From contig CANRCX010000004.1 in assembly GCA_947629235.1 (NCBI GenBank), positions 13,191 to 77,190 of the forward strand: a stretch of 64,000 bases of DNA. Direction: 5' to 3'. This DNA comes from an uncultured Bacilli bacterium. Lineage in GTDB: Bacteria > Bacillota_I > Bacilli_A > RF39 > UBA660. This document shows, in pieces, positions 21,638 to 35,323 of this stretch. The stretch's first letter is position 1. The number at the start of each line of letters is the position of its first letter. The notes under the pieces are model-generated. The model was given only the letters and a program-made list of their open reading frames with translations, did no database searches and was not told the origin of the DNA. The translations under genes were made by a program, and so were the position numbers.

Positions 21638-21714
21638 GGCGATGTAGCTCAGCTGGCTAGAGCATCTGGTTCATACCCAGGAGGTCGAGGGTTCGAATCC
21701 CCCCGTCGCTACCA
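21638..21714 (+). tRNA. tRNA-Met (CAT), elongator type, CCA encoded
   Basis: Cloverleaf folded by hand: acceptor GGCGATG/CGTCGCT, D arm GCTC/GAGC, anticodon stem TCTGG/CCAGG with loop TTCATAC, T arm GAGGG-TTCGAAT-CCCCC. The 5' half is nearly identical to my recollection of B. subtilis elongator tRNA-Met. It lacks the initiator features (no 1:72 mismatch, no GGG/CCC anticodon stem). Confidence 0.9.
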
Positions 21715-21752
21715 AATTTATAGAAAACTCGAATAATACGAGTAAAATAGAG

Positions 21753-21779
21753 AACGTACTTGATAAAAGTACGTTTTTA
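21753..21779 (+). terminator. intrinsic terminator after tRNA-Met
   Basis: AACGTACTT (21753-21761) pairs with AAGTACGTT (21767-21775), then TTT. Confidence 0.65.
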
Positions 21780-21794
21780 TGTTATTATGTATTT

Positions 21795-21906
21795 GTCAAA
21801 GAAATTTGCATAAAATAAAAAAGGAATACCTAATTTTGATGAGTTAGGTACTATCCTAAAATTATTTCAGTTTAGTACCGACTTATACAGTTGGTACTAT
21901 TTTATT
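21795..21906 (+). ncRNA. candidate antisense sRNA (type I antitoxin-like), ends approximate
   Basis: Promoter TTGATA-17-TATTAT (21760-21788) is homologous to the promoters at 34717 and 35060. Hairpins are AGGAATACCTAA/TTAGGTACTATCCT and TAGTACC(21873-79)/GGTACTA(21893-99), followed by TTTTATT. It is fully complementary to the 3' UTR and last codons of the minus-strand small ORF. Confidence 0.3.
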
Positions 21907-21974
21907 AATATGATTAAAATCACAATAATAAGGAGTATTATGATAGAGCAAAGATATTTCTCTGATTTTCTCAT
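21897..21974 (-). CDS. 25-aa hydrophobic peptide, type I toxin-like (not in ORF track)
   Basis: MRKSEKYLCSIIILLIIVILIILIK. GGAGGTG lies 7 nt upstream of the ATG. It has its own promoter (TTGCAT-17-TGgTATAAT on the minus strand near 22046-22075) and its own terminator (AGGATAGTACCTAA/TTAGGTATTCCT + TTTTTTATTTT ending near 21815). Confidence 0.4.
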   Translation of the reverse strand: MRKSEKYLCSIIILLIIVILIILIK

Positions 21975-22121
21975 AATTTCACCTCCTTTCACTTTAAAAA
22001 GTAAAAGAGAATAGTACCTAAACTAACTAAGTATTCCTAAAATAATTATACCAAACAAATGTTTTTGATGCAATGCTTTTATATTAAATTTTGACAATTT
22101 AAGAAACACATTTGCTTACTA

Positions 22122-33764: not shown

Positions 33765-33782
33765 TGATTTAGTACTATTTTC

Positions 33783-33811
33783 TTGACAAAATAGGCAAAA
33801 AGTGGTATAAT
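33783..33811 (+). promoter_or_regulatory. strong sigma-A promoter (extended -10)
   Basis: TTGACA (33783-88), a 17-nt spacer ending in TGg, then TATAAT (33806-11). Confidence 0.7.
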
Positions 33812-33817
33812 GTTAAA

Positions 33818-33939
33818 CAGTTGAAGGGGAGTAGTTCTAAAGTTTAATTCGTCATTACGATATAAAATATCCGGATTAAACAGTAACTTTGTTATTGAAC
33901 AAGACTTTCACAGTAATTGTGGGGTCTTGTTTTCTTTTA
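33818..33939 (+). promoter_or_regulatory. structured 5' leader ending in an intrinsic terminator (candidate riboswitch/attenuator)
   Basis: A 10-bp hairpin, GTTTAATTCG/CGGATTAAAC, lies at about 33843-33892. Then comes AACAAGAC(33898-905)...CACA/TGTG...GTCTTGTT(33924-31) plus TTTTCTTTT, ending 27 nt before the ATG of 33967. Confidence 0.45.
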
Positions 33940-33966
33940 CCTCACAATAAATAAGGGGGGATATAT

Positions 33967-34494
33967 ATGAAGAAAAGAAAATTTTATTTAGCTTCTGCTA
34001 TACTTAAAAGAAGGGAGATTGTTGAATTATATGACAAATATGAAACATTTGGAGAAATAGATTATTATATATATGTTTCAAATAAAAAAGTACTTGTTTA
34101 TAGTGAAACAGATGAAAATGGTAAAGAAGTTTTCTATCATTATCCAAGTGGTAAAGAAGTTTATGAAAGAAACTTTGATTCATCATATACTACTGATAAT
34201 TCATATTGTTATACTTTCAATTATACAGATAGTATTAGTTTAGTAGATAAATTTGCTAAAAGACCATTTAAAGAAAGAGATTATTTAGGATACTTTGTTC
34301 CTATTCATGAATACTTTGGATTTAATACAGAAATAACTTCAACAGGATTAGCAGTTGCATTATTAAACTATGCTAACTTAAATAAATCTGGTTATACATT
34401 ATTATCAATGAATAAAGAAGAAGCTAAAAAACAAATTGATGCTATTAAAAATAAAAATACAGAAGAAGAACAAAAACAATTAAAACTAAAATAA
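33967..34494 (+). CDS. hypothetical protein
   Basis: 175 aa with a GGGGGG/AAGGGGGG RBS. No motif recognised. Confidence 0.6.
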   Translation: MKKRKFYLASAILKRREIVELYDKYETFGEIDYYIYVSNKKVLVYSETDENGKEVFYHYPSGKEVYERNFDSSYTTDNSYCYTFNYTDSISLVDKFAKRPFKERDYLGYFVPIHEYFGFNTEITSTGLAVALLNYANLNKSGYTLLSMNKEEAKKQIDAIKNKNTEEEQKQLKLK

Positions 34495-34510
34495 CTATTT
34501 CTAATATCAG

Positions 34511-34539
34511 AGTAAGTCAAAATATGACTTACTTTTTTA
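34511..34539 (+). terminator. intrinsic terminator
   Basis: AGTAAGTCA (34511-19) pairs with TGACTTACT (34525-33), then TTTTT. Confidence 0.7.
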
Positions 34540-34716
34540 ATTTATCATAATATTATTAATGATAAGTAAAATAAAAAATTAATATTTGTAGTAGAATTGA
34601 AGATAATTCTAGTTATCTATTATAATGAAAGTTATTGTAATAAAAATAGTGAAATACTCTTGAAATGTATGAAGATTATTAATATACATAAGTGAAGTAA
34701 TACTATACAAATTAAT

Positions 34717-34745
34717 TTGACAAAATACATAAATAATGTTATTAT
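34717..34745 (+). promoter_or_regulatory. sigma-A promoter of candidate sRNA (repeat copy 1)
   Basis: TTGACA (34717-22), a 17-nt spacer, then TATTAT (34740-45). Confidence 0.55.
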
Positions 34746-34751
34746 GAATAC

Positions 34752-34866
34752 ATCAAGGAAACTTGAATAAAATAAAAAAGGAACATTTAGCTTATTGCTA
34801 AAATGTCTACCTTAATGCGATAGACATTTAGTCTATAAAGAATAGACTAAGTGTCATTTTTTTATT
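34752..34866 (+). ncRNA. candidate antisense sRNA (type I antitoxin-like), ends approximate
   Basis: The 5' hairpin is ATCAAG/CTTGA. Further hairpins are AATGTCTA/TAGACATT and TTAGTCTAT(34828-36)/ATAGACTAA(34842-50), with a T7 run at 34857-63. It is complementary to the 3' UTR and stop region of the minus-strand small ORF. Confidence 0.35.
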
Positions 34867-34946
34867 ACAATTATCAAAATGATAATTAAAAATAAAATGA
34901 TAATTATGAGCTTTAGAATTTTGATCAAAAAAGTCTTAGTTTTCAT
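34854..34946 (-). CDS. 30-aa hydrophobic peptide, type I toxin-like (not in ORF track)
   Basis: MKTKTFLIKILKLIIIILFLIIILIIVIKK. GGAGG lies 9 nt upstream. A minus-strand promoter TTTACT-17-TATAAT sits near 35010-35040. The minus-strand terminator is ACATTTTAGC/GCTAAATGT + TCCTTTTTTATTTT (34770-34812). Confidence 0.4.
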   Translation of the reverse strand: MKTKTFLIKILKLIIIILFLIIILIIVIKK

Positions 34947-35059
34947 ATTATCAAACCTCCTTTCTAAAAAAAGAAGGTAGACACTTTAGCACTAAATATT
35001 CCTTAATATTAATTATAAATGATAATTTATACTAAGTAAAGTAAAACTATACATTTTTA

Positions 35060-35089
35060 TTGACAAAAATACATTAATAATGATATTAT
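35060..35089 (+). promoter_or_regulatory. sigma-A promoter, repeat copy 2 of the sRNA promoter
   Basis: TTGACA (35060-65), an 18-nt spacer, then TATTAT (35084-89). About 120 nt around it are homologous to 34690-34840. Confidence 0.5.
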
Positions 35090-35095
35090 GAATAT

Positions 35096-35249
35096 ATCAA
35101 GGATACCTTGATATAAAATGTCTACCTAAAATTGGAATAGACATTTAGTCTTTAATTATGATATGAGCCCTGTTTCTTGAATAAAAAAGGAATGGGGCTT
35201 ATATCATTATGTACTATTTATTATGAAGTCTTCTACAAGACTATTTTTT
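35096..35249 (+). ncRNA. orphan sRNA paralog or 5' leader of the lipoprotein-MBOAT-DHHW operon
   Basis: Hairpins are ATCAAGG/CCTTGAT, AAATGTCTA/TAGACATTT and ATGATATGAGCCC/GGGGCTTATATCAT, with a terminator-like AGTCTT(35227-32)/AAGACT(35237-42) + ATTTTTT. It ends 75 nt before the ATG at 35324. Confidence 0.3.
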
Positions 35250-35323
35250 ACTTTTAAAAACAATTGATTAATTTTTGAATATATAGTAAACTTTAAATAT
35301 AAGGAAAGTAAAGGAGAAAAATT

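Follow-up and report, generated by a model that had tools for sequence, protein, structure and literature searches.

A candidate type I toxin-antitoxin module from an undescribed sequence family in an uncultured Bacilli bacterium

Does a gene-free gap in the DNA of an uncultured Bacilli bacterium encode a type I toxin-antitoxin (TA) module, or does it hold nothing more than the open reading frames (ORFs), hexamers and hairpins of AT-rich intergenic DNA? The window, meaning the whole stretch that was analysed, comprises 64,000 nt (22% GC) of contig CANRCX010000004.1 from assembly GCA_947629235.1 (lineage UBA660). An initial annotation, made from the sequence without database searches, had described in a gap of 830 bp (829 bp as measured, 34495-35323) a type I TA-like module paralogous to a first locus near 21.8 kb. 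Gene callers skip ORFs as short as the one in question. Type I TA systems have been reported from few phyla, which is thought to be due largely to searches that start from known sequences (PMC12390103). A shared covariance model and a maintained ORF support the earlier description, and the locus is probably a chromosomal type I TA module of a previously undescribed sequence family, toxicity being assigned by analogy.

Convergent ORF and small RNA in the window and in related loci

Two convergent transcripts are predicted. The minus strand would give an mRNA of ~240 nt (~35005 to 34768) for a 30-residue membrane peptide with a single helix, and the plus strand would give a ~111-nt small RNA (sRNA) from a near-consensus promoter. 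The sRNA is perfectly complementary to the last ~94 nt of the mRNA, which comprise the 3' untranslated region (UTR), the stop codon and the two final lysine codons. At the level of sequence, the antisense RNA gene has its own promoter, its own terminator and complementarity to the predicted toxin mRNA, and its promoter is nearer to consensus (11/12 matches) than that of the toxin (10/12). The features are as follows.

34854..34946, minus strand: candidate toxin ORF, 30 codons and a TGA stop, encoding MKTKTFLIKILKLIIIILFLIIILIIVIKK (ORF list)
34960-34956, minus strand: Shine-Dalgarno sequence (SD) GGAGG, 9 nt ahead of the ATG
35040-35012, minus strand: toxin promoter TTTACT-17-TATAAT, 10/12 matches (promoter scan)
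34974..35004, minus strand: 5' arm of a long-range helix, formed by the very start of the toxin mRNA (inverted repeat, folds, RNAalifold)
34956..34977, minus strand: anti-SD hairpin in which CCUUCUUU (34977-34970) pairs with AAAGGAGG (34963-34956) and holds GGAGG (read from the sequence)
34778..34813, minus strand: 3' arm of the same long-range helix, lying in the 3' UTR of the toxin mRNA, complement of sRNA hairpin P2 (inverted repeat, folds, RNAalifold)
34766..34806, minus strand: intrinsic terminator of the toxin mRNA, in RNA ACAUUUUAGC-AAUAA-GCUAAAUGU then UCCUUUUUUAUUUUAUU, in DNA (reverse complement of ~34766-34806) ACATTTTAGC/GCTAAATGT then TCCTTTTTTATTTT (read from the sequence)
34717..34745, plus strand: sRNA promoter TTGACA-17-TATTAT with a TG-extended -10 box, 11/12 matches (promoter scan)
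34752..34863, plus strand: candidate antitoxin sRNA, ~111 nt (covariance model, consensus structure, terminator scan)
34754-34765, plus strand: sRNA hairpin P1, CAAG-GAAA-CTTG, with a GAAA loop
34766-34779, plus strand: A-rich linker of the sRNA
34780-34811, plus strand: sRNA hairpin P2
34823-34855, plus strand: sRNA hairpin P3, an intrinsic terminator hairpin, followed by a T7 run at 34857-34863 (terminator scan)

The 30-codon ORF with GGAGG 9 nt upstream, both promoters and both terminators were thus found where the initial annotation had placed them. The toxin terminator (ACATTTTAGC/GCTAAATGT and TCCTTTTTTATTTT), which it had called clean, is unlisted in the terminator scan because the scan needs at least 3 G-C pairs. 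Its convergent RNA of ~115 nt does have three hairpins but came out at ~111 nt, with the transcription start placed from the position of the -10 box. The RNA does end in the T7 run, but the run does not overlap the ORF stop: it is antisense to the two C-terminal lysine codons, and the stop codon (34854-34856) falls inside the 3' arm of the sRNA terminator hairpin.

Are these features more than chance would supply? Chance co-occurrence of an ORF, hexamers and hairpins would fit the region taken by itself. Promoter-like sites are no commoner than chance (11 found, 10.7 expected from shuffles), short ORFs are plentiful in DNA of 22% GC, and many of similar length overlap the region, so the features of this single window are not significant alone. 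Comparative data across related loci are decisive for the reality of the module. Species-representative genomes were scanned with a 23-nt pattern that covers the -10 box and the first hairpin (P1). The pattern occurs three times in the window (0.05 expected) and matched at least 119 loci, nearly all in metagenome-assembled genomes (MAGs) labelled as uncultured gut Bacilli, 'Tenericutes' or Erysipelotrichaceae. The host animals are rabbit, goat, mouse, chicken and human, and among the named organisms are Coprobacillus sp. CAG:605 and Candidatus Ventrenecus. The elements recur in the same order, with compensatory changes, in more than 100 related loci, which refutes chance; the probability that we leave to it is negligible. 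The initial annotation had argued from two diverged copies that the ORF is not a chance one, and this larger set bears out the argument.

In the same >100 loci the -10 region and the first ~35 nt of the sRNA are nearly invariant. Members share one plan, P1 with its GAAA loop, an A-rich linker, P2 and P3, and the sequences of P2 and P3 vary between subtypes yet always pair. To measure pairing, 94 distinct sequences were aligned with plain MAFFT, without fitting to structure. RNAalifold returned three helices from it, with double changes at 13/18 pairs. For the 25-pair structure, 91.5% of cells pair, compared with 30-42% when partners were slid by 1-3 columns. Double compensatory changes occur at 19/25 pairs (289 cells), and none of 500 shuffles reached the observed values. 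G·U exceeds A·C by 137:2 in P2 and by 87:37 in P3, which indicates that the hairpins are selected in the plus-strand transcript. The compensatory changes that the initial annotation had proposed to look for are thus present, and they make up the divergence of the hairpin cores that it had noted between the two window loci.

A covariance model, also proposed there, was built from the 94-sequence alignment. It matched the window at 21793-21904 (91.7 bits) and 34750-34861 (80.6 bits), scores that are partly by construction since both loci are seed members. About a dozen non-seed copies in related genomes, which do not have the exact search pattern, scored 43.6-111 bits, nine of them above 70.

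The peptide is likewise maintained. A convergent hydrophobic ORF of 24-31 codons with a GGAGG-type SD is kept in ~80 of the ~105 loci having enough sequence, and it ends at the sRNA terminator or just inside it. The outcome that was to count against the module, an ORF that is not maintained, was therefore not what the related loci gave. The ORFs fall into seven or eight peptide subtypes (MKTKTFxIKVLKLIAIILFLLIIMIVVIKK, MKKRTFIIKVLRLIAIILLLLTLLVIAIKI, MRKSEKYLCTIIILLIIVILIILIKIVPTV, MKKKDLLISFLILIIILLIVSLMILCIKK, MSKKDFLIFSLIIIILLLIVLLFVILK, MTKKDFLIFALIVIIILLILLLFK, MNKREKSFFIIIIILLFIIISLIYR and MTKREASLFIIILLLFFIVITLLFR) that share a basic N terminus, a single hydrophobic segment and usually a basic C terminus. 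Folded alone, the window peptide MKTKTFLIKILKLIIIILFLIIILIIVIKK was modelled by AlphaFold2 as a single helix over residues 2-29 (predicted local distance difference test score 94.6). Among 26 ORFs of the window's subtype group, substitutions at codon positions 1/2/3 number 2301/1481/2736, position 2 varying least. UGA is read as tryptophan in Mycoplasma-like relatives, and under that code the ORF would extend. This reading was rejected: TGA ends 8/45 long ORFs and TGG is used for tryptophan. TGA is a genuine stop in this genome.

Structure of the toxin mRNA and proposed action of the sRNA

How would the mRNA be kept silent? Its predicted folding indicates that it is silenced by a local hairpin that buries the SD and by a helix of ~30 bp that joins the extreme 5' end to the 3' UTR. 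In 47/62 family mRNAs the minimum-energy fold leaves no base of the SD unpaired, compared with 23% when the upstream 42 nt were shuffled, and the mean probability of an unpaired SD is 0.14. The TATAAT box stands at a constant distance from the conserved 5' UTR, which starts ~7 nt past the box. In every subtype the 5' arm repeats the sRNA P2 region in the same sense but without its loop, and the SD-pairing hairpin comes after it. At the other end of the mRNA, the U-tract of the terminator is the complement of the sRNA's conserved A-rich linker in all family members.

The inverted repeat (I7) that flanks the ORF is 91% complementary. Full-length mRNA folds of both window loci pair the 5' end with the 3' UTR, and the RNAalifold consensus of 62 full-length mRNAs contains the long-range helix with 17 covarying pairs spanning 230-281 alignment columns. 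UA/CG and AU/GC exchanges are abundant in it, G·U is frequent and A·C almost absent; this bias points to selection at the RNA level on the minus-strand transcript and not to DNA symmetry. Cognate 5'/3' duplexes have a mean energy of -33.5 kcal/mol, compared with -12.5 kcal/mol for shuffled 5' UTRs; that of the window is -38.6 kcal/mol. The median rank of the cognate partner is 3.5 of 62.

An inverted repeat of this kind raises the question whether the ORF is incidental and untranslated, within a locus that is really a non-coding repeat (for instance a miniature mobile element bounded by inverted repeats, or two structured RNAs that converge). The repeat does flank the ORF, many copies exist, often at a set distance past a tRNA gene as is the case for some insertion elements, and short ORFs arise easily in 22% GC DNA. 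Such an element would not explain why ORF length, frame, start, SD and its spacing, and hydrophobicity are kept across very divergent subtypes, nor why codon position 2 is the most constrained. The arms of the repeat depart from each other by G·U and not by A·C, as expected if selection acts on pairing of the minus-strand RNA. No target-site duplications or transposase were seen, the 23-nt pattern was not found in 2.9 million viral contigs (IMG/VR), and blastn of the whole module (34690-35020) gave no match in plasmid or phage collections. A non-coding repeat is therefore improbable. Carriage of the module by a prophage or plasmid was rejected on the same blastn and IMG/VR searches.

When the 3' UTR was blocked in silico, SD accessibility showed no consistent shift (0.14 vs 0.13) and exposure of the 5' end about doubled, from 0.22 to 0.45. 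This result favours mRNA decay over a direct block of translation as the main effect of the sRNA. In the proposed mechanism, loops P2 and P3 of the sRNA would kiss the complementary hairpins in the mRNA 3' UTR, and the contact would extend until the two RNAs formed a long duplex, open to cleavage by a double-strand RNase such as RNase III. The sRNA has the same sequence as the mRNA 5' end and could also displace that end from the 3' UTR, which would give a 5' exonuclease access. If the level of the sRNA fell, the peptide would be made and would damage the membrane. The window sequence also permits the A-rich linker to block translation in trans through the U-rich loop of the anti-SD hairpin. 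SprA1AS pairs in trans in this manner. This candidate was dropped because the U-run is missing from the 5' UTRs of most subtypes.

Known type I systems and the case for a toxin

Is the family related to a known system? The window gave only a tRNA in Rfam at the gathering threshold, and with E values up to 10 the region 34500-35320 gave only unrelated weak matches. Ten family peptides were not found by exact look-up among 15 billion predicted proteins, and the peptide strings had no match in the literature searched. The locus nonetheless combines a hydrophobic ORF of <60 amino acids and its ribosome binding site with an antisense RNA gene and an mRNA that sequesters the SD, the features of a type I TA module.

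[quoted passage not shown] Like txpA/RatA, bsrG/SR4, bsrE/SR5 and yonT/SR6 of Bacillus subtilis and sprG/SprF of S. aureus, the module has convergent RNAs whose 3' overlap includes the end of the ORF, encodes a short hydrophobic peptide (often with a lysine-rich C terminus) and is chromosomal in a low-GC Gram-positive lineage. The overlap is of the TxpA/RatA and BsrE-G-H/SR type: the 3' end of the sRNA (34863) lies 7 nt, two lysine codons and 1 nt, into the ORF. In the B. subtilis and S. aureus modules the expected mechanism is duplex formation followed by decay of the RNase III type, and with bsrG/SR4, binding at the 3' end has an effect on the SD region as well. There is no peptide or RNA homology to TxpA/RatA or BsrE-G-H/SR (Pfam, NCBIfam, and Rfam including RatA and SR4). 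Unlike the B. subtilis and S. aureus modules, many members lie ~65 nt downstream of tRNA genes with the -35 box in the terminator loop, and the mRNA 5' end pairs with the segment of the 3' UTR that lies under the antisense RNA. It follows from this pairing that the antisense RNA repeats the mRNA 5' end in the same sense. We know of no report of such copying in these 3'-overlapping families. By sequence and organisation, then, the family is new in sequence and known in kind, a Gram-positive type I TA system with a 3'-overlapping antisense RNA.

Two other groups resemble the module in the structure of the mRNA. In par/Fst of Enterococcus faecalis (RNA I-RNA II), convergent promoters accompany a 5' stem-loop that buries the SD and a 5'-UH helix, the terminator stem-loops are the likely first contact sites, the toxin has a PXXXG motif and a charged C-terminal tail, and the RNAs share direct repeats DRa/DRb and a bidirectional terminator (PMC7472228). 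The module has convergent promoters, an SD-sequestering 5' stem-loop, a helix that hides the 5' end and terminator stem-loops as likely first contacts, the 5' structures being analogous and not homologous. It differs in having no PXXXG, no Fst match in Pfam and no proline or glycine in the membrane segment of the aligned subtypes. Two separate hairpins replace the shared terminator, P3 with its T-run ending the sRNA and the complement of P2 with its T-run ending the mRNA, and the overlap is ~94 nt and reaches into the ORF. The repeat that flanks the ORF is inverted where those of par/Fst are direct, so that the sRNA and the 5' UTR share the same sense and the sRNA is not complementary to the translation initiation region.

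In hok/Sok and in aapA/IsoA of Helicobacter, a long-distance 5'-3' interaction keeps the full-length mRNA translationally inert, together with SD sequestration. The hosts are Gram-negative, the antisense RNA pairs within the 5' part of the mRNA, which overlaps it completely, and 3' processing activates the message. The module shares the SD sequestration and the 5'-3' pairing. It differs in sequence, with no homology, in its hosts, which are not Gram-negative, and in its antisense RNA, which covers the 3' end of the mRNA, the 3' partner of the helix.

Systems of this kind are thus familiar. What distinguishes this one is that the sRNA copies the mRNA 5' end, that many copies lie downstream of tRNA genes, and that a family without detectable homology to known ones occurs, in multiple copies, in 100+ species belonging to a gut lineage that is uncultured and very low in GC. 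The data set comes with a covariance model that can be used at once, and both the sRNA and the long-range mRNA helix covary strongly, which should aid the annotation of MAGs and the study of 3'-binding antisense RNAs that control 5' events. The sequence-diverse subtypes are possible orthogonal RNA regulators.

Is the peptide a toxin? A harmful ORF and a protective RNA would predict copies in which the ORF has decayed and the sRNA stays intact, and such an asymmetry was observed: L018 has a frameshift and L037 has lost the start codon, both beside an intact sRNA. Genomes carry several divergent copies, including tandem arrays of 2-3 modules. Multiple copies, tandem arrays, decayed ORFs with an intact sRNA and the stronger antitoxin promoter together amount to behaviour typical of type I TA loci.

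The other possibility is a small membrane protein that is no toxin, for example a transporter modulator or stress peptide, whose level is merely tuned by the sRNA. A conserved ORF, the SD and the sRNA would fit such a peptide equally well, no homology to a proven toxin was found in Pfam or NCBIfam, and the neighbours of the module are ordinary chromosomal genes (DUF362, cyclophilin-like, MBOAT). Multiple divergent copies with tandem arrays, and decayed ORFs next to intact sRNAs, are instead typical of selfish or toxic modules. The mRNA is silenced in two layers, SD burial and the 5'-3' lock, and no conserved partner gene adjoins the module, contexts differing between loci. Between near-identical strains the ORF interior has been swapped while the UTRs stay ~99% identical. 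We consider a non-toxin peptide unlikely, and a type I toxin remains the preferred reading.

Several points weigh against this preference. Pfam and NCBIfam gave no relevant match to the family peptides, so the peptide is called a toxin by analogy. Only ~16 residues make up the hydrophobic core between the flanking lysines, and ~20% of family loci have no recognisable ORF. Thermodynamic predictions are soft in RNA of 22% GC. Decay, a block of translation or even activation by sRNA binding are all compatible with the sequence, which cannot decide between them. The transcripts, the toxicity of the peptide and its neutralisation are inferred, and the hosts are uncultured.

Variation among copies was also seen at individual loci. 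Besides L018 and L037, ~20 other loci have an intact sRNA and a peptide ORF that is frameshifted, start-less or unrecognisable, and the sRNAs of L053, L058 and L117 have internal deletions. Three-module tandem arrays with a spacing of 400-475 nt occur at L009 (6795-7706), L064 (4828-5892) and L067 (5347-6082); modules within one array are sometimes of different subtypes.

Paralogous copies and genomic setting

How many copies does the window hold? The initial annotation had linked the module to the first locus through the sRNA promoter and a short segment. Paralogy holds and extends further, since the alignment with 21741-22050 takes in the module from end to end (34696-35017; 64% identity, E = 4e-16). 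The peptides have diverged, as had been noted. That inventory of two modules stands, but a third sRNA-like copy (copy B) and the pairing between the 5' and 3' UTRs had been overlooked. The additional features are as follows.

21638-21711: tRNA-Met, with the paralogous module directly downstream
21741..22050: paralogous module, the first locus (sequence comparison; covariance model, 91.7 bits)
21793-21904, plus strand: sRNA of the paralogue (covariance model)
21897-21974, minus strand: ORF of the paralogue, encoding MRKSEKYLCSIIILLIIVILIILIK
35034..35250, plus strand: copy B, a partial, toxin-less third sRNA-like copy (repeats, promoter scan)
35060 and 35089, plus strand: near-consensus promoter of copy B, TTGACA (35060)-18 nt-TATTAT (35089)
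35155-35210, plus strand: long, very stable 21-bp hairpin of copy B
~35228-35250, plus strand: terminator of copy B

Copy B has a P1-like hairpin with a different loop and matches the covariance model weakly (22 bits). Its segment 35114-35155 is 94-95% identical to sRNA 34799-34838, and this near-identity over ~40 nt makes it complementary to the toxin 3' UTR. RNAduplex of copy B and the full toxin mRNA gave a long duplex with gaps, which was uninformative. No minus-strand ORF of at least 25 codons was found in copy B, and L019 carries the copy too, arranged in the same way. Possible readings are a second antitoxin that acts in trans and what is left of a lost module.

At the first locus the peptide is 25 amino acids long (…ILIK*), where orthologues (L013, L066, L119 and others) have 30 (…ILIKIVPTV). 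The window reads AAAATAG where relatives have AAAAATAG. The peptide looks to have been truncated by a 1-nt deletion in a run that doubles as the T-tract of the sRNA terminator.

Three metagenome contigs match the window at 99.7-99.9% identity and represent near-identical strains. The closest relative among the matches listed is L019, from a rabbit MAG, which matches at 95% identity across 3.6 kb and shares the two-copy arrangement. Between the window (34864-34943) and L019 (reverse complement, ~490-570), the sRNAs, UTRs and promoters are ~99% identical and the ORF interior is only ~60% identical (MKTKTFLIKILKLIIIILFLIIILIIVIKK vs MKKRIYILKILRYICIILLLISLLIVIIKK). This difference suggests cassette-like exchange between paralogues or diversifying selection on the peptide.

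The gap is bordered by a 175-aa ORF (33967-34494, no Pfam match) on one side and a lipoprotein gene on the other. The 175-aa ORF and its flanks (window 33766-34710) are missing in L019, where the module comes straight after the DUF362 gene. The comparison indicates an insertion or deletion of ~950 bp beside the module.

Where do the copies of the family lie? A same-strand tRNA gene is found <130 nt from the start of 47/126 copies (118/126 had at least 150 nt of upstream sequence). Most of these tRNA-linked copies stand ~60-76 nt downstream of the tRNA gene, and the tRNAs are of seven amino-acid types. Examples are the window's first locus (21638-21792) and loci L010, L016, L029-L034 and L041-L047, among others. 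The -35 box of the sRNA lies inside the loop of the preceding terminator hairpin (AACGACTTGTCAAAAAGTCGTTTTT).

A bolder proposal, which we regard as doubtful, joins this position to the structure of the mRNA. The antitoxin would be a mimic of the mRNA 5' end that evicts the protective 5' arm from the 3' UTR and admits a 5' exonuclease, on top of double-strand cleavage; and the location downstream of tRNA genes, with the -35 box in the terminator loop, could couple antitoxin supply, via read-through or a shared promoter context, to growth-rate-controlled tRNA transcription. If the coupling is real, release of the toxin would report the shutdown of stable-RNA synthesis.

The tRNA trailer (GATTGATA..AAACTCGAAC..GTTCGAG) was considered as a part of the module and rejected, as it also follows tRNAs without a module (10/35). 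From its distribution, the trailer is a lineage-wide terminator motif.

Among L036, L061 and L086, two contigs that bear a module carry the labels Roseburia sp. and Muribaculaceae, probably through an error in binning or labelling. L086 has no module: it is GC-rich and matches the search pattern by chance. At L021, L037, L064, L076 and L114 another conserved element, TGTTATAATTTTTATAGRTTNAATTGATAT..TGTCAATTTAGAAAAC, follows the tRNA terminator. It was looked for in the window and not found there. At those loci it consists of a promoter-like box and then a hairpin, and it may be another small RNA or module family.

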